Assembly (NCBI GenBank): GCA_036867785.1
Contig: CP145411.1
Span: 1,364,001 to 1,428,000 of the forward strand
DNA length: 64,000 nucleotides
DNA from: Plasmodiophora brassicae
Lineage: Eukaryota
Direction: 5' to 3'
Both the position numbers and the translations under genes were made by a program. The notes under the pieces are model-generated. The model worked only from the letters and a program-made list of their open reading frames with translations. It was not told the origin of the DNA and ran no database searches. Shown here piece by piece: positions 35,434 to 44,698 of the stretch; the stretch's first letter is position 1; every line of letters starts with the position of its first letter.

Positions 35434-37059
35434 CACTTTCGTCAAGACGGATTTAATGCAGACAAAGGAACCCCTTTGCTTCTATTGGATTCATGATTGC
35501 CTTGCCAAACGCAGTTCTTCATCTGTCTGCGAAATATGCATCGTGGGATGCAGGAGAATTCCCGTCTACAAACGTTCCCGTTGTATCCCGTATGATTGCA
35601 GGAGCGCTGTCGAAAGGCTTAAAACACGATCATGTATGTATAAGCTCGCGGTTGGAATCTGTAACATATTGCTCTAATGCAAATGATTTTCTTTAAGGAA
35701 ACGATGCTCTGGTGAGTCTTGCAAGTTTGCCGGATACAGTTTTGTTTCGGTGATTTCGCCGCTTCCCTCCAATTCATGAATTCTCATGCTCATAAGTTAC
35801 ACGCAAGAAGTCGGGACACTCTGTTATGCGCGGGGTTCTGACTGAAGGCGATACTGTGGCCATAATGACGGTCTTGAGATTACGAACCTGGAGTACTGCT
35901 TTGTCTGCCCAGTTTCAAGCCATAATCGCTAAGCAACTTTCCATCGCAAATGTGTCGCGGAATTCTTCGCTTATGTCCATATAATCACGGTACGTGATTA
36001 CGTTCATTGTACTCGTTATGCGGGCTACACTGAGAAAGTATACAGTCGGAACTTGACTCGTCAGTCATTGTTTGATGTTCAGCATTAGGCAATATTATTG
36101 CGCATACATACTGTGTCGTATCCTGCCTATTATTCTGCAGTTACCGGTTTCCGTAAAGGTTGTGTCATTTCGGACCCTGTGGATCAGTGCAATCACAACC
36201 GAGTCATTCACTGACCGTACCGATATGGCCTCCTGTAGGTTGTTTACGCTGAGTTGCCTGGGTTCGAGGTTCCCACCAACGCGGTTGGATACCTTCAAGC
36301 TACCGTCTTCCGTCTCGGCGCGCGTATGCTGTCAACAGGTCGCATACACTATGATCATACCACGGGAAAACGAGGCCCAAGAGATCACAGCGTGAAGGAC
36401 AGGCCTGGTGTTCCCACCAGTTCCGTTGAGCTAACAGTACGCGAGTGTCGCGCCGAATTCTAAACCATGAGTGATCTCGTGCATTCACAGGGTTTCGAGT
36501 CGGCGGCGCCACGCCAAACGCCCGGCCTCAGCATTCTTCCTGGACGCTGCGGGTTCAACCGGTTACTGCGACGAACACCTCGCCTGATCTACAGAGAGAT
36601 GCGGGAGGAGGACGGATCCAGTGTCATTACGCGTGCGTTGCGCGCCCAGGTGTGCTGTAATACTTTGCTACTGCTGACACTTTTGCATTTGAGCTGAGTC
36701 GGTACGTCTTCGCGCGTAACGTCCAATATACACATCGCCCCTGCAAGCTTCTAACGGTTATACAGGTGTGTATTAAGGCGAAAGCGCCCACGTCGACGCG
36801 TCAGGTCTACAACGTCCATGTAGGACAGCCGATGTCGCTTATGGGGTGCCGGGGCATCGGACCACTGGTAGGACCGGTCGCTGTCACGAAGTCCCGTCGT
36901 CGGGCATACCTACATAGTACACGTTTTTGGGCAGCGTGGCCCGTTACATGTCGACGACCAGCTGCGTCCATCATTATTATATTGTCGATATATTCGTCGG
37001 GATCGCAATGCGGTTGGTGGTCGCTGTCCGCCGCTGGTAGTGGTGTCGCGGGGGGCATC

Positions 37060-39624
37060 ATGAGGCGGACTGCGGCTCAGGTCGAGCCGCTCCTGGGCGA
37101 CATTGGCGCCGTCGTGCGATCGCACGGCGGCCACTGGGCGCTGCTGGCGGGCGCTACCCTCGTTGTATGCTGGTTCGCCGCCATGCACGACGCCGTGTCC
37201 GGGTCGCGCCTGGCCGCCCGCGGCTACGCCAACTATTGCTCGCTGCATCCGTCGTTCCCCAAGCCCGAGCTCATCCTCGAGTCCGACTGCTCCGATCGCT
37301 TCCGTCTGTATCGGCTCAGGGACGCGCGCGCGCTCACCGTCGACCGACCCGGCCCCGCTCAGTTCGTCATTGTCTTCGTCCCTGGTCATCATGGCCACTT
37401 CACACAAGGCGACCCGCTCGCGTCGTCGGTCAGCGAGGTGTACGCTGCGGATCCGTCCGTTTCCATCGAGGTCTACGGCCTTGATTTCCATGAAGGGTCA
37501 TCGGCGTTCGACGCCAGCGTGGCGTTCTCCGAGATCCAGTTCGTTCGCAAGTGCATTCATCATTTGCTCAAGGCGCATCCGACCGCCGAGTTCGCGATCG
37601 TCGCGCACAGCATGGGCGGGGTCGTCTCTCGGCACGCGGTGGCTCAGGAAGCGGACAACGAGCGCATTCGTCTGCTGCTAACGCTGAACTCGCCGCATCG
37701 AGCACATCCGTTTCTGTCGGATGGCTGGCTGGCCCCGTTGTACGACGAGTTCGCGCACGGCAATGCGACGCTCGTGTCGATTGTCGGCGGCCATCGCGAT
37801 ACGATGGTGCATTCGTCGCTGGGGCTCCTGTCACCCGTCGATGACGCGCATGTTCACCACTTCGGGGATATCATGACCGTCTTTTCGTCCGCGATTCCTC
37901 AGGTCTGGATGGACGTTGATCACGATGCCGCGATGTGGTGCGCTGAGCTGTCCAGGCGGGTCGTTGCCGTTGCCCTTCAGGCCCTGCGCCAACGAGGCGA
38001 TATCCAATCTCGTGTTCGCGTCCTTCGATCCGCGCTACTGGGTCCCTTGTCATTGCCTACTCAGCCACGGTCTGTCCCAAGCCTGCCTGTGGCGCACACG
38101 GATCCTGTAATGTCGGTTAATATGGTCGGCGTGCCGTTCCACTACCCAATGGTGATGATGTCGAGGCACCCATGCGAAACGTTTCTTGGCGAAGGCGTTC
38201 AATGGATTAACGTTCCGGTGCCGTACGTGCATGACCATGAGACGTTGAAGCTTCACGATTTCATTCGTCCGGAACCGGACAATCCGAACGCGTTGCTGCG
38301 ATGTCTGGCGGTCGCTACGCCAGACAACTCGTCGACGATATACCCGGCCGGTGGGTTTGCATCACTTGCCGTCGCTGTGGGCCGGCAGTACAGAACCAGT
38401 CTCTTTTATGGTGGACGCCCTGTTGAAATCCCTCCTGGAACGTCACTTGTCGTCATCGGGTTACCTGTCGCGCCCACGTCTTTTCTCTCTCGAACGCTCT
38501 GGGAGGGCTTAATTCCGTCGGTCACTGTCGTCCATGTGGAACGCGTGTCACGACTGTCGACCACTGCCAATTCAACCATGCTCCCCGAAGCACTCTTCGT
38601 GAGCTGCGAACAGCCCCTGTCTGGCGAACTCCGGTGGTACCACAATGAGAAGCTGACGTCGTCGTGGTACATCTCCATCGCGATGCACCCTGGCATATCT
38701 CGGGCCCTGCTGGCAAGGTTGATCATTTCGCCGCACTTTCAGTACCGCGTATCTGTCGGATTGGACATGTTCGCAACATTGTCAACTGGTGCTCGTCTCT
38801 ATTCCGGTTTTCTGATGCCGTCTTCCCTGATCACGATATGCCTATACCGGCTAGCAGCATTACCTGTTCCGACCGTATCATCGATGGTTGTTCTACCCCT
38901 GACGGCATTCTTCGTTCGCTCCGTACTGCACTCTGCTGAGCCAATTGCGCCAGCCGGCCTGTTTCTGACGACTTTCTCCTTCTGGGTTTGCTACGGCCTG
39001 GTGCTGGTTGTCTCCTTCGTGTTATGCTCATTACGACAGGCGGCGCTTCGGTTAACGTCCTGTGGTCGTGTATTGAAAGGACGCTACTATACGCGGCGGA
39101 AGGTTGCTATCGTGATCAGTTTGCTTGTCCTGTCGTTTGGATTCGGACCATGGACATGCGTCCTTGCCGTATGGATCCGTCTCGCTATCGAATTGTGGCG
39201 CCCGCCCGCATCCCCATCGTCTCGTGTCATGATCGCAGCTGTGTACCTTGTCATCATCCTCCTGAAAATCCCCGCTGGAATGGCCGTGTTCAAGCGTATC
39301 TCGATGAGTGGCGAAGTCGGTGGCGCTTCATGGATCTGGCGTGTGATTTACTTGGGTCCGGGCATTGGCGGCCTCGCAGGCAGTGAATTCCTCCTCGCCG
39401 CCCCCATCCTCTTCCACATGCTTCTGCTGCTGTACACTCCTGGCGCAAAAGTCGAAGCGGAATCCTCCTGGCTTCGCGTTTGCGTATGTCTGGCGTGCGC
39501 GTTCAGCACAGCCACCCACTTGAGAATGTACGAGATCGTCGTCAGCATCAGCGCGCTTTCATACTGTTTCCTGTTCGAAACCTGGGCGCGCAGAATATCC
39601 CCATATCGCAAGGTGCCGAGCTGA
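37060..39624 (+). CDS. PGAP1: GPI inositol-deacylase (PGAP1/Bst1)
   Basis: N-terminal TM, VIVFVPGHHGHFTQ, IVAHSMGGVVSR lipase motif, LTLNSPH, GGHRDTMV, VDHDAAMWC and a multi-TM C-terminus. Confidence 0.88.
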   Translation: MRRTAAQVEPLLGDIGAVVRSHGGHWALLAGATLVVCWFAAMHDAVSGSRLAARGYANYCSLHPSFPKPELILESDCSDRFRLYRLRDARALTVDRPGPAQFVIVFVPGHHGHFTQGDPLASSVSEVYAADPSVSIEVYGLDFHEGSSAFDASVAFSEIQFVRKCIHHLLKAHPTAEFAIVAHSMGGVVSRHAVAQEADNERIRLLLTLNSPHRAHPFLSDGWLAPLYDEFAHGNATLVSIVGGHRDTMVHSSLGLLSPVDDAHVHHFGDIMTVFSSAIPQVWMDVDHDAAMWCAELSRRVVAVALQALRQRGDIQSRVRVLRSALLGPLSLPTQPRSVPSLPVAHTDPVMSVNMVGVPFHYPMVMMSRHPCETFLGEGVQWINVPVPYVHDHETLKLHDFIRPEPDNPNALLRCLAVATPDNSSTIYPAGGFASLAVAVGRQYRTSLFYGGRPVEIPPGTSLVVIGLPVAPTSFLSRTLWEGLIPSVTVVHVERVSRLSTTANSTMLPEALFVSCEQPLSGELRWYHNEKLTSSWYISIAMHPGISRALLARLIISPHFQYRVSVGLDMFATLSTGARLYSGFLMPSSLITICLYRLAALPVPTVSSMVVLPLTAFFVRSVLHSAEPIAPAGLFLTTFSFWVCYGLVLVVSFVLCSLRQAALRLTSCGRVLKGRYYTRRKVAIVISLLVLSFGFGPWTCVLAVWIRLAIELWRPPASPSSRVMIAAVYLVIILLKIPAGMAVFKRISMSGEVGGASWIWRVIYLGPGIGGLAGSEFLLAAPILFHMLLLLYTPGAKVEAESSWLRVCVCLACAFSTATHLRMYEIVVSISALSYCFLFETWARRISPYRKVPS

Positions 39625-40662: not shown

Positions 40663-42484
40663 ATGGCGTTCCAGAGACCGGACGGCGCTCGCTGGCCGAC
40701 GCCGGCGTCGTTCGCGGCGGTATCACCGGCGCCATCAACGATCACTGATGCGTCGACGCAGCTGTGGACACCGGTGCCCGCCGGCAAGCAGTTGTCGTTC
40801 GAAGAATACAGCCCGATCGCGCCGGCCGTGCCCCCGTCGCCGTTGCGTCCGCCAGATGCCCCCGCGGCCCCATTGCCGCCTATGCCGACGAACGACAAGC
40901 AGCTGCGGTCGTCGCTGTCGGTCGCTCGCGCTGACTTGAACAACGCCATGCTGCAGATCGAGCACCTGCGCCGGTACATTGTCGACCTCGAACGGGACCG
41001 GGCCGCCTCCCAGCACGCCGCCCCAGGGACCCCCGAGGAATTCGACCGAGAACTGAACCGGCTACGGGAGGCCATCGTGCAGCTGCAGCTGGAACGGATC
41101 AGCATTGAAGCGGATCGGGACAGCAAAGCCAAGGAACTGCTCCGCGTTCGACAAGAACTCGACGAACTTGGCGTCCTTTATCGAGGTTGGTGTCGATCTG
41201 TGTTCGGTCGGCGTCACGAACCCAAGCTTGATTGCCTCAGGGAAGGACCGCGAGCTTCGTCGGCTGCAGGATCTGCACGAGGCGCAGGCGCGGCGCGACA
41301 CGAAGGAGAGGGCGGCCGATGACGACCGCATCAGGGCGCTCGCCGAGCTCGTTACGCGATTACGTAACGGTCTGGCCGTCACGAATGATATGCTGAACAA
41401 CGAACGGCAGCGTTCAGCGCGATTCGAAACCGAGCTGGACGCCTGTCGTGAACTTCATCGGCAGGTCTGGGCGGTGTCACTGACAACGTTTGTCTGGGTG
41501 GCGTCTGATGTTGTGTAGGCGTGCGTCAGTCTGGATCAGTGCCGATCAGATCTGCTGGCGTCGCGGAACGAGGTCGACGAGCTGTTGGCCCAGCTGTCGG
41601 AGATCACAGCGAAACGCAAGGACGTGGTGGGCGATGGAGGCGTCCGTGTTCAGCAGCGACAGCCTGCCCAGTCGGATGCGGTCGTAAATGACGCCACTTC
41701 GACCGATGACCACGCGCGTCCTGCTCGTGCATGTACGCCTACGTTGTCGTCAGTACCGGCGGATGCAGGCCAGCGCAGGGCGGAACCCTCCAGGGCGTCG
41801 GACGCCAATGGGTCCAGGGCAACGGAGCCTTCACCGTCAAGGTCAGCCGGACCTACCGGCAGCGACATACCTGAACCACCACCGGACGTCGACGAACTCG
41901 TCAGAGAGCTCTCCAATGAGGTTAGGCTGACTTGTAAACGTCCATCAGCAGCGTCACCTTTAACTGCGTTTGTAGCGAACGCGAGTCGTTGAGCTGACCG
42001 AAGGACTTGAAAGGGCGAGGCAACGCGAGCAACAGACTGACCGGCTATGCGACTTGCTTCAAAGTGAGATCGAGACCCTGAAGCGCCACATGCCGCGTGA
42101 ACCGTCAACGAGTAAGCGGGGGCATTCCATCATAGTAATTAACGACGAGGTTGACGTCTCGCGTTCGTGCAGGCAGAACTGGGTCGGGCACTGACGATTC
42201 GTCGTCGGGGCTGCTGGATATATGCATGGACGAATGCAGCAAGCTCAAAGATTCGAACGCCGAGTCTGTCTTTGCTCAATGAATGCCATGCGCCAAGTTT
42301 ACCTGGGTGTCGTTGCAGGCTGATGCAAGCATACGAACGTGCGGCTGCCCAATGTACGAGGCAAGCTGAAGAAATCAAGAAGATGAGGGACCTGCTCCAG
42401 GCGTCCCCCGATCGGCGTTCCCGCCGCGTCACGTTTTCCCCGGTACGAAGTGTCGCCAATGTCAGCGTTGCCCAACGATACTGA
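40663..42484 (+). CDS. Hypothetical coiled-coil protein (multi-exon)
   Basis: Pro-rich N-terminus followed by heptad-rich E/R/L segments across successive ORFs separated by intron-like gaps. Confidence 0.65.
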
Positions 42485-42743
42485 TCGTCGGCGGGTAGGT
42501 CATCGAAAGGAACAACTCTGACGTATCGACAGTTGCGAAGTCCTGTCTCGAGACACCGCAGACCGTTCGGTCTGATTCGAGCAGGGTCGTTTCGAGAGTC
42601 TGGCGGTAGTGCACCGGGTCGCCTGTGTACATATATGCGCATCGTGTACATTTATCGTAAAGTCGCCTAATATTCCCAAGCGTCACGTTCACCTATGCAA
42701 GTCCAGTTTGTGGGAGACCGGGGCTCCCGCACACACCGCATCG

Positions 42744-43715
42744 TTATTCCGAACGAGGCGTCACGCTGCCAGCTTCTGCACTCAGCTTCGGTTCGCGTGC
42801 CTCGCCTGACTGGATCCATGCCTCTCTGGTTTGGAGCTCGTCGAACCCGCCAATATGGTGGCCGCTGACAAAGATTTGCGGAACCTTCGTCGACCCAGAA
42901 ACGGCGCGAAGCACCTGGTTCGAGACGTCCTTGCCGACGACTACTTCTGAAAATGACAAGGACCTATTCTTGAGCCACTCCTATACGTCAGACGCGTCAG
43001 ACGATTGCCCATTTCAACGCAGGACATCAACCACAACTTTTGCCGCGTGGGATACTGGGCACGTCGCCTTTGTAAACACGGTGATGTCTGGTTGAAGGAT
43101 CAAAGAAGGGCACAAGTACGCGAGCATCGTATCTGCGTCAGACACCTTCGCGGGTTTCAGACGTATAGGCAGGACGGCCAGGTGATTCGGACGTACCGCA
43201 TACGGGTCACCGACAACGTTCGGTTCGACGAACGCCTTCTCAATTAAGCCGTCGCGAACCAACATTGAGTATCTTCGGGAACGGTGCCCAAGGCCCGCGG
43301 ACGACAGGTCCAGAAGCATGCCCAGTTGCTTGGTGAATTCTCCGTTTCCATCAGGCACCATTACAACGGTATCGTCGTTGCCCTGGTCCTTGCTCCACGC
43401 ATCCAGTACGAATGAATCGTTGACACTGAAATAGGAGAACCCGTCATTTGAATAGGGCACGTCGCGCTGGCAAGACACCGCGGACCTGATACACAGAATC
43501 GCATCCACCCCGTTATCGAAAAAGTGTTGAGCGAGCTCCAGGTACCGTGGGAAGTGGTTGCTCGAGCACGTGGGAGTGAACGCACCAGGAAGTGCGAAGG
43601 CGACGATCGACTGATTGTTGAATAGTTGGTCGGTTCGCACGTCGGTGAACCGACCATCCTTGAAGAACCTGAACGTCGCGTCCGGAACACGCCGACCTTC
43701 CAGTGAAGTCGCCAT
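42744..43715 (-). CDS. Hybrid peroxiredoxin-5/glutaredoxin fusion (bacterial hyPrx5/PGdx type), 4 exons
   Basis: LPGAFTPTCSSNH, SVND, PDGNGEFT, RSRRYSMLV, GDPY/VSDADTML, then a Grx domain FTKATCPVS...VPQIFVSGHHIGG. Confidence 0.93.
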
Positions 43716-43805
43716 CTTCTCGCCTCGCCGCGTAGGCAGCCGTCCAGAAAAATCTATGAATCATTCGGATCGGACACGCAAGGATGTGGCACTGCGAGCA
43801 CTTCA

Positions 43806-44698
43806 TTAGGCAATGAGAAACCCTCCATCGACAGCAATGGTCTGGCCGTGAACCATCCCGGATTGAGGGCTGAGAAGATAGACGACGGCTGATGCAGTGT
43901 CCTCTGTGCAAGTTCGAACTCAGTACCTGTTCTGGCTGTTCGAGAGGCTCAGACCTGGCTCCGCGAACCTCCCCAACGGAGTTCGCTCCATCATCGGCTT
44001 CGCCTTGACAGGATCGCTCCAGGCTCGACGGCCCTAAATGGTTACACTGAGGACATGTGCAGTGACGATTCGAGGTGCCTGCAGCACGTACCATGTCCGT
44101 CATGGTGATCGTCGGTGCAATGCAATTGACCCGAATCCCGTGTTTGCCCAGTTCAAGCGCCATGCAGCGTGACAAGTGCTCCAAGGCCGCCTTGCTCGTG
44201 CAGTAACTGGCATGGTCGCGCAACGGATGGCTCCCACAGATGCTCGAGATATTGACAATGGACCCTCCGCCATCGGTGGCCATCCTTTTGGCCACCGATT
44301 GCGACAACTTCATCACCGCACGAACATTGATCCGGAACGTGCGGTCAAAGTCGTCGATGTCGGTATCGAGAAACGGCGACGTGATCGCGATCCCAGCGCA
44401 ATTCACCAGACCGTACAGTGGAAGGGCGGCGTTAGCTAACCGTCCTGTCAAAGTGCGGAATTGCTCTTCACAACCATCGGTTACCGAGCTTGTCGACCTC
44501 ATCTGTGTTCGACAGATCCGCAACGATCGTCGTAATACCGGGCAGGTGCCGCGCCAGGTCGTGCAGGCCGCCTTCCGACGACGCAGTCGCGACCACGATT
44601 GCGCCTTCCGCCACCAGGCGCTCGCAAATGGCCCGCCCCAGTCCACGTGACGCGCCCGTCACCAGCACGCGACGATCGTGCAACCCCGACGACGACAT
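43806..44698 (-). CDS. Short-chain dehydrogenase/reductase, L-xylulose reductase (DCXR)-like (multi-exon)
   Basis: TGASRGLG, VNCAG, NISS, YCTSK, GIRVNCIAPTITMTDMG...WSDP...VDGG. Confidence 0.88.

Follow-up and report, generated by a model that had tools for sequence, protein, structure and literature searches.

The hybrid Prx5 of Haemophilus influenzae (HI0572, also called PGdx) joins a Prx5-type peroxiredoxin (Prx) domain to a glutaredoxin (Grx) domain, and its glutathione-dependent peroxidase activity was reportedly described by Pauwels et al. in 2003. Its structure, 1nm3, is a tetramer in which Prx and Grx domains of different subunits are in contact. Eukaryotic type II/Prx5 peroxiredoxins such as poplar PrxD (1tp9), human PRDX5 (1hd2), Plasmodium AOP (1xiy) and a protein of Chara braunii (P0199) share the Prx5 fold and the catalytic motif but stand alone, without a fused Grx domain, and several eukaryotic enzymes of this type are reduced by a separate glutaredoxin together with glutathione. 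The gene described here lies on the minus strand at positions 42744-43715 of a 64,000-nucleotide stretch of DNA from Plasmodiophora brassicae, the rhizarian parasite that causes clubroot (the window; contig CP145411.1, positions 1,364,001 to 1,428,000, assembly GCA_036867785.1), and all coordinates below are positions in this window. Judged from its sequence, the product combines a Prx5-type peroxiredoxin with a class-I glutaredoxin in one chain and is of the hyPrx5/PGdx type. An initial annotation of the window had put the gene forward as a bacterial-type hybrid that has acquired introns and as a candidate for horizontal transfer, a proposal that is supported by the exact annotated protein, the splicing, the neighbouring genes, the phylogenetic tree and the approximately unbiased (AU) test. 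We consider it quite likely that an ancestor of P. brassicae received the gene, already fused, from a bacterium in an old transfer. In its passage on such proteins, a 2009 survey places peroxiredoxin-GRX fusions in proteobacteria only (PMC2679010).

Gene structure and splicing

Scripted joining of four exons (43715-43486, 43425-43197, 43145-43038 and 42980-42744) gives a coding sequence of 804 nt with a single terminal stop, which begins with ATG at 43715 and ends with TAA at 42746-42744 on the minus strand. The three introns removed measure 60, 51 and 57 nt, and each runs from GT to AG. The spliced product of 267 amino acids (aa) is identical to the database protein P0002, 'Thioredoxin domain-containing protein [Plasmodiophora brassicae]', which was found in a search of 5.8 billion protein clusters. 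The corresponding protein of a second P. brassicae isolate, P0308 (CEP00308.1 / SPQ95087.1, locus PBRA_008042), differs at 4 of 267 residues (T14A, A153V, M160I and E190G) and retains the Grx active site CPVS. The gene is thus a nuclear P. brassicae gene with the public locus PBRA_008042; its model is already in the public annotation, and what is new is its nature and origin. One of the NCBI names of P0308 reads 'unnamed protein product (mitochondrion)', despite the nuclear contigs of 1.86-1.88 Mb and the lack of a presequence; the label looks like a submission artefact.

The window sequence of the gene was present in 20 of 24 listed sequencing runs, which come from 10 studies, and contigs of four of these runs (X2, X8, X9 and X12) were aligned to the locus. 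No run is recorded as RNA and the kinds of run were guessed, so that the cDNA origin of the contigs rests on their spliced joints. In each of X2, X9 and X12, which belong to three studies and carry three organism codes, one contig skips precisely all three introns. The gaps in the contigs fall at 42980-43036/43037, 43144-43194/43196 and 43426-43485, and their plus-strand ends, CT..AC, correspond to GT..AG on the strand of the gene. X8 has the intron-1 joint at a depth of 2 and also unspliced contigs across all three introns. Zero differing letters were reported for the aligned contigs of the four runs. The parts of the gene are as follows.

43486..43715, minus strand: exon 1, 230 nt, start codon 43715-43713; N-terminal half of the Prx5-type domain including PGAFTPTCS; contig joint 43425/43486 in X2, X9, X12 and X8
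43566..43568, minus strand: codon of Cys50, the peroxidatic cysteine of PGAFTPTCS; position read from the sequence
43426..43485, minus strand: intron 1, 60 nt, GT..AG, phase 2; interrupts ILCI|SVND; open in frame; skipped in X2, X9, X12 and X8
43197..43425, minus strand: exon 2, 229 nt; remainder of the Prx domain, with PDGNGEFT and, in SRRYSM, the conserved Arg
43146..43196, minus strand: intron 2, 51 nt, GT..AG, phase 0; between GDPYA and VSDADTML; open in frame; skipped in X2, X9 and X12
43038..43145, minus strand: exon 3, 108 nt; VSDADTML linker, followed by the beginning of the Grx domain and its active site
43050..43061, minus strand: codons of Cys182-Pro-Val-Ser185 (CPVS), the monothiol Grx active site; kept in both isolates, with no differing letters in the aligned contigs
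42981..43037, minus strand: intron 3, 57 nt, GT..AG, phase 0; inside the Grx domain (HAAK|EWLK); contains an in-frame stop; skipped in X2, X9 and X12
42744..42980, minus strand: exon 4, 237 nt with the stop codon counted; completes the Grx domain (KVPQIF, GGFDEL) and adds a tail of about 25 C-terminal residues

Contigs without introns can arise only from spliced RNA, so the gene is transcribed and spliced. The introns had been placed at 43485-43426, 43196-43146 and 43037-42981 in the initial annotation, which named cDNA as a check; these positions are exact, as the clean reading frame, the match of the product to the annotated protein and the contigs of three runs, lacking exactly these three introns, agree. 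Introns of 51-60 nt also fit the average given in a passage of a published account of P. brassicae, 4 introns of 60 bp per gene (PMC4471660), which supports the reality of the gene. Since intron 3 splits the Grx domain and CPVS is joined on exon 3 to the linker, both domains must be encoded by one mRNA, and the possibility that Prx and Grx belong to separate transcripts, which had been named as an outcome that would refute the proposal, is excluded.

A 248-codon stop-to-stop frame at 43014-43760 (minus strand) reads through introns 1 and 2 because both are multiples of three without in-frame stops; intron 3 alone breaks the frame. The Redoxin match described below falls on this frame. A prokaryote-style gene call of this read-through open reading frame (ORF) exists as protein P0001, of 233 aa. 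All three intron lengths are in fact divisible by three, and an unspliced message would stay open through exon 3; chance may account for this (1 in 27 for the lengths), as may tolerated intron retention.

A concern with any eukaryotic gene of bacterial type is that it might come from bacterial contamination or mis-assembly or, for a fusion, that separate Prx and Grx genes were wrongly joined. The proteins of highest similarity are bacterial, and a prokaryote-style call does give a continuous ORF in which introns 1 and 2 are open. We nevertheless regard the chance that any of these explanations is correct as close to negligible. Contigs from three studies lack precisely the three GT-AG introns, the sequence recurs across the 20 runs, and in two assemblies the contigs that carry the gene measure 1.86 and 1.88 Mb. 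Its neighbours are a PGAP1-like ORF and, 90 nt upstream, a short-chain dehydrogenase/reductase (SDR) gene that itself has an intron, and the single mRNA spanning both domains argues against misjoined genes. The earlier argument that introns and eukaryotic neighbours speak against contamination is therefore upheld.

The spliced contigs come from runs under four different organism codes. This fits expression in infected tissue, the codes hiding the identity of the organisms. The role proposed in the initial annotation, a defence against the oxidative burst of the host, is a separate matter; it is plausible but speculative.

Domain architecture and comparison with the Haemophilus influenzae hybrid

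The Pfam model Redoxin matches the part of the protein encoded by exons 1-3 (E 2e-22, 80 bits against a cut-off of 26.6), and Glutaredoxin matches the part encoded by exon 4 (E 3.6e-6, 27.5 bits against 22.9). The top match of 15 in NCBIfam is TIGR02190 (GlrX-dom), the model of the Grx domain specific to Prx-Grx hybrids, and the leading Grx models are of class I types (GlrX-dom, Grx3 and GRX_euk). Assignment of the Grx domain to the class II monothiol glutaredoxins (CGFS, Fe-S binding) was considered and ruled out, as the site is CPVS and the best Grx models are class I.

In a search of solved structures 1nm3 was matched with E 2.6e-82, residues 3-239 of the P. brassicae protein aligning with its residues 2-237, in line with the end-to-end colinearity with bacterial hybrids that the initial annotation had described. 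The two proteins have the same domain order and length, no domain-level gaps and 52% identity, and share PGAFTPTCS, the Arg of RYSM, the VSDADTML linker, VPQ and GG. The motif strings listed in the initial annotation are all present (EGRRVPDATF, PGAFTPTCSSNHFPRY, PDGNGEFT, EPNVVGDPYAVSDADTMLAYL, FTKATCP and RAVSGSTKVPQIF). Eukaryotic Prx5 structures match the Prx half only, at 86-109 bits. An AlphaFold (AF2) model built from a 40-sequence alignment has a mean predicted local distance difference test (pLDDT) of 90 and a predicted TM score (pTM) of 0.84, and superimposes on chain A of 1nm3 (1nm3_A) with a TM score of 0.86 and a root-mean-square deviation of 2.9 A at 52% identity.

The P. brassicae gene differs from its H. 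influenzae counterpart in being nuclear and carrying three introns, and its protein in having CPVS where H. influenzae has CPFC, R for W in SWRYSM, K for T in TVPQ, an extra residue near QGNDD and the C-terminal tail. Aligned with bacterial hybrids more widely the protein is likewise colinear, with that single-residue insertion and a tail of about 25 residues that bacterial relatives lack; the last two blocks of the model, within the tail, have pLDDT values of 54 and 48. The N-terminus aligns to residue 1-2 of bacterial hybrids, and the frame is closed by a stop immediately upstream, its ORF starting at 43760. Because the start matches the bacterial start and is preceded by an in-frame stop, there is no presequence, as the initial annotation had stated in denying a targeting peptide, and we infer that the protein is cytosolic.

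Active sites and a possible catalytic cycle

The catalytic residues of the Prx half are intact, namely PGAFTPTCS with Cys50 and the Arg of RYSM. Across 119 aligned hybrids the peroxidatic motif reads PGAFTPTCS in 101, PGAYTPTCS in 17 and PGAFTPTCT in one. The Grx half retains Cys182, the VPQ cis-proline motif and GG. Its active site, residues 182-185, is CPVS, a monothiol site in place of the dithiol one, as had been noted from the letters; it is unique among the 119, the other 118 having C-x-x-C. The P. brassicae domain thus departs from the dithiol signature of the hybrid family, with the first, nucleophilic cysteine present. At SWRYSM the P. brassicae protein is the only one with R in place of W among the eight commonest forms (117/119), and where it has K for T in TVPQ the eight commonest forms (106/119) all begin with T.

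On the basis of the conserved residues, knowledge of the family and the literature, a conventional cycle can be proposed. Cys50 of PGAFTPTCS, assisted by Thr47 and the Arg of SRRYSM, would reduce hydrogen peroxide or organic hydroperoxides and become a sulfenic acid, which would form a mixed disulfide with glutathione. The fused Grx domain would then take the glutathione off through its N-terminal Cys182 alone, and a second glutathione would restore Cys182. With Ser185 in the place of the second Grx cysteine, only a monothiol and strictly glutathione-dependent cycle would be available, the dithiol side route being gone. In the relevant passages of one study, deglutathionylation normally needs only the N-terminal cysteine, and CPYS enzymes, both the natural Grx7 and the engineered Grx2 C64S, sustain yeast without cytosolic thioredoxins and dithiol glutaredoxins (PMC7286987). 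Since the monothiol route is the normal one and class-I glutaredoxins with CPYS are active, the loss of Cys185 should not abolish turnover, and CPVS should allow glutathione-dependent recycling of the Prx domain.

A different explanation for these substitutions would keep the bacterial origin of the gene and suppose that recycling of the Prx domain by the Grx domain has been lost. The protein would then be a plain 1-Cys peroxiredoxin or a redox sensor or relay, or the Grx domain would serve as a glutathione-binding or scaffold module. This possibility draws on the singularity of CPVS among the hybrids, on the R and K substitutions, on a TIGR02190 score of 82.7 bits, which is under the curated cut-off of 99.3, and on the gregarine proteins described below, in which active sites are lost while the module is retained. 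We think it quite unlikely. Cys182, the cis-proline of VPQ, the GG motif and the whole fold are preserved, CPVS occurs in two isolates, and the monothiol route is, in the passages cited above, the usual one for deglutathionylation, CPYS enzymes being fully active in yeast. Moreover, the metagenomic hybrid P0123 (JGI metagenome, 269 aa) also combines a monothiol Grx site (CSHS) with R before RY (RARRYAM for SWRYSM), which suggests that natural variants of a similar kind exist and are viable. P0123 differs from the P. brassicae protein in its 25-residue N-terminal extension. A hybrid Prx-Grx that is recycled by a monothiol Grx domain remains the explanation we prefer.

Relationship to bacterial hybrids

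Among the best 120 of 8000 scored matches, one is the read-through ORF of the gene itself and one is from P. brassicae, and all 19 that name other organisms are bacterial: Gamma- and Betaproteobacteria, Sorangium and the cyanobacterium Pannus. The closest ESM-Atlas clusters are 100% Bacteria. The closest sequences are bacterial or metagenomic hybrid 'glutathione peroxidase' proteins, P0314 (56% identity), P0084 (55%) and P0123 (48%), and none is closer than about 56%; these hybrids are uninterrupted ORFs, unlike the P. brassicae gene. One member of the P0084 cluster lies on a 125-kb contig. An exhaustive scan of 1.84 billion representatives returned 5393 matches at E <= 1e-3, of which 113 were at E <= 1e-30. 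A search with the Grx half gave 24 matches, all of them hybrids and none a closer relative. Three loci at 37-45% identity came from a metagenome scan, none of them closer and none indicating a donor, and a scan of genome contigs with peptide patterns specific to P. brassicae gave one locus (L001, in a Thiomicrorhabdus metagenome-assembled genome, 39% over the Grx part) and likewise no donor.

The more careful of our trees has 46 rows: the P. brassicae protein, 20 hybrids (11 named bacterial and 9 metagenomic), 8 PrxII-like proteins and 17 other stand-alone Prx5 proteins. The PrxII-like rows are N-terminally extended and are anchored by C. braunii P0199; the tree excludes gregarine units, fragments with frameshifts and the longest rows. 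The P. brassicae protein falls inside a 21-row hybrid clade with support of 99/98, and the stand-alone PrxII-like clade containing P0199 is separate at 98/98. The Prx columns alone recover the same hybrid clade with the P. brassicae protein (96), so this grouping is no artefact of the Grx columns. Union of the P. brassicae protein with the eight PrxII-like rows was rejected by the AU test (difference in log likelihood (lnL) 73, p 0.0005). Phylogeny had been named in the initial annotation as a check on horizontal transfer, and it comes out in favour.

Quick trees of 110 and 88 rows also place the P. brassicae protein on the hybrid side; in the 88-row tree it lies in the half that contains the hybrids (96) with P0123 as its sister (88). 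P0084 and P0123 are its nearest rows in the quick trees. The sister relation to P0123 (88 and 81 in the quick trees) was not recovered firmly in the careful tree. P0123 might represent the donor lineage, or else a eukaryote that has not been sampled.

Gregarine Prx-Grx proteins

Two EukProt proteins, P0121 of Gregarina sp. Poly1 (1075 aa) and P0157 of Blabericola migrator (1154 aa), consist of four tandem Prx-Grx units. Together with P. brassicae, these two gregarines are the only named eukaryotes with Prx-Grx matches, within the best 120 of 8000 matches and the representative scan. The statement of the initial annotation that the fusion is characteristic of bacteria is thus too strong, the close relatives of the P. 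brassicae protein being bacterial as it had claimed but the Prx-Grx unit occurring in gregarines as well. The units have the same order of modules, Prx then Grx, and are 23-39% identical to the P. brassicae protein; unlike that protein they are tandem and mostly degenerate. Most lack the peroxidatic motif, the Grx C-x-x-C or both, and PGAFTPVC is found only in unit 2 of P0121. In the 110-row quick tree the units pair one-to-one between the two species (unit 4 at 99, unit 2 at 97, unit 1 at 94 and unit 3 at 83). This pairing implies that the genes are the gregarines' own rather than the product of chance contamination, and that the four-unit layout is older than the split of the two species. 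The gregarine proteins were not among the results of a separate search for longer proteins, which gave seven fusions, all metagenomic.

The existence of these proteins raises the possibility that the fusion entered eukaryotes a single time, in a Rhizaria-Alveolata ancestor or with a later transfer between eukaryotes, so that P. brassicae and the gregarines share one acquisition and most lineages have lost it. The tandem units paired between species are consistent with this, as is the outcome of constraining P. brassicae together with six gregarine units in a 54-row tree: the constrained tree (lnL -15950.71) costs 18.4 lnL relative to the best tree (lnL -15932.35) and, with a p-AU of 0.105, is not rejected. 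The careful search behind the 54-row tree stopped at iteration 100 with its bootstrap unconverged, and the constrained search also ended early. However, the best tree puts the six gregarine units with P0135 and P0141, outside the core hybrid clade that contains P. brassicae. The gregarine units are also far more distant (23-39% identity) than P0084, at 55%. When the units were used as BLAST queries, P. brassicae ranked only 3 to 58 among 56-102 matches for seven units, and the eighth gave no match to it. No other eukaryotic hybrid was present among the 150 best representatives or the best 120 of 8000 matches, so that vertical descent would call for a great number of losses. The power of the AU test is low here, given the very long branches of the gregarine rows. 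An AU test on a quick tree (p 0.635, the constrained tree being 6.9 lnL better) was discarded, as the free quick search was poor. We therefore regard a single shared acquisition as unlikely, and two separate transfers would be favoured on the sequences compared.

An extension that we hold tentatively, as possible rather than probable, is that two unrelated lineages of intracellular parasites within the stramenopile-alveolate-rhizarian group (SAR), the phytomyxid P. brassicae and the gregarines, independently captured the bacterial, already fused Prx-Grx module, and that the P. brassicae version, obligately monothiol and strictly coupled to glutathione, may aid survival in living host cells. 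If true, this would be convergent recruitment of one bacterial antioxidant fusion by parasites.

Origin and age of the gene

The gene is integrated in the host genome, its product belongs to the hybrid clade, and the fusion is patchily distributed among eukaryotes; how deeply the protein nests among bacteria is moderately supported. No closer eukaryotic orthologue was found in the protein-cluster and representative scans, outside of which the genomes of other phytomyxids lie. We propose that an ancestor of P. brassicae would have acquired the pre-fused gene from a bacterium, the named neighbours being Proteobacteria, a myxobacterium and a cyanobacterium, and that three typical spliceosomal introns of 51-60 nt would then have been inserted into an uninterrupted, conserved coding sequence. 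The introns sit within conserved stretches (ILCI|SVND, GDPYA|VSDADTML and HAAK|EWLK) without indels, which is the pattern expected for insertion into a once-continuous gene. The GC content at third codon positions is 0.65, against 0.665-0.67 in neighbouring genes, and the share of codons preferred by the neighbours is 0.48 against 0.46. This neighbour-like codon make-up, the three introns and an identity of at most about 56% to anything found point together to an old event.

Several observations weigh against transfer of a functional hybrid from bacteria. Sorangium and P0104 branch before the P. brassicae protein at 91/81 and 86/81 only, so nesting among bacteria is moderately supported and no donor is singled out. 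Nine of the 20 hybrid rows are metagenomic, the nearest, P0084 and P0123, among them, and the bacterial origin of these rows is inferred. Only one of the eight PrxII-like rows is named, and the group was picked after the first tree had been seen. To these add the gregarine constraint, which was not rejected, and the TIGR02190 score below its cut-off. Finally, the three departures from consensus (C185S, W to R before RYSM and T to K in TVPQ) could mean altered or reduced activity. The old bacterial transfer nevertheless remains, in our view, the likely origin of the gene.

Significance and previous literature

The gene is a clear, expressed, intron-bearing eukaryotic member of a well-known bacterial enzyme family, and offers a case, dated by amelioration, of intron gain after transfer. 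It also provides a natural test of whether the second Grx cysteine is required in a hybrid Prx-Grx. For clubroot biology it would add a cytosolic, glutathione-linked route of peroxide removal that is of non-eukaryotic ancestry and has no close plant counterpart. As a single ordinary enzyme with a conventional mechanism, it is a matter for specialists.

We found no publication on the gene, which the public record labels simply 'Thioredoxin domain-containing protein'; its locus tag and accessions are absent from the articles and supplements searched, bioRxiv supplements and non-text files lying outside that search. The articles that join Plasmodiophora, peroxiredoxin and glutaredoxin, including PMC7826189 and PMC9667741, are in the passages concerned not about PBRA_008042. 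In the passages of the P. brassicae genome papers that mention horizontal transfer, only transporters, chitinases, lectins and mitochondrial genes are named. As far as the literature searched shows, the identity of the gene as a hybrid peroxiredoxin of bacterial ancestry has not previously been public.

Neighbouring genes

Three features of the surrounding sequence were identified.

43806-44658, minus strand: SDR gene (adh_short, E 5e-35), upstream on the same strand, with a spliced 51-nt intron at 43904-43954
36661-39624, plus strand: PGAP1-like ORF of 987 codons, with a glycosylphosphatidylinositol (GPI) inositol-deacylase alpha/beta-hydrolase domain (E 2.5e-32); typically eukaryotic
42442-42497, plus strand: intron of a convergent gene, 56 nt, GT..AG; spliced in X8, X9 and X12

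The Atlas clusters of the SDR gene are mixed bacterial and eukaryotic, and gave no sign of a co-transferred block. The SDR stop codon lies about 90 nt before the start codon of the Prx-Grx gene, and single contigs cover both genes. ORFs around 42442-42497 had no Pfam match. No more than a few hundred bases separate the end of this convergent plus-strand neighbour from the Prx-Grx stop codon, and contigs run from one gene into the other, suggesting that their 3′ ends overlap.

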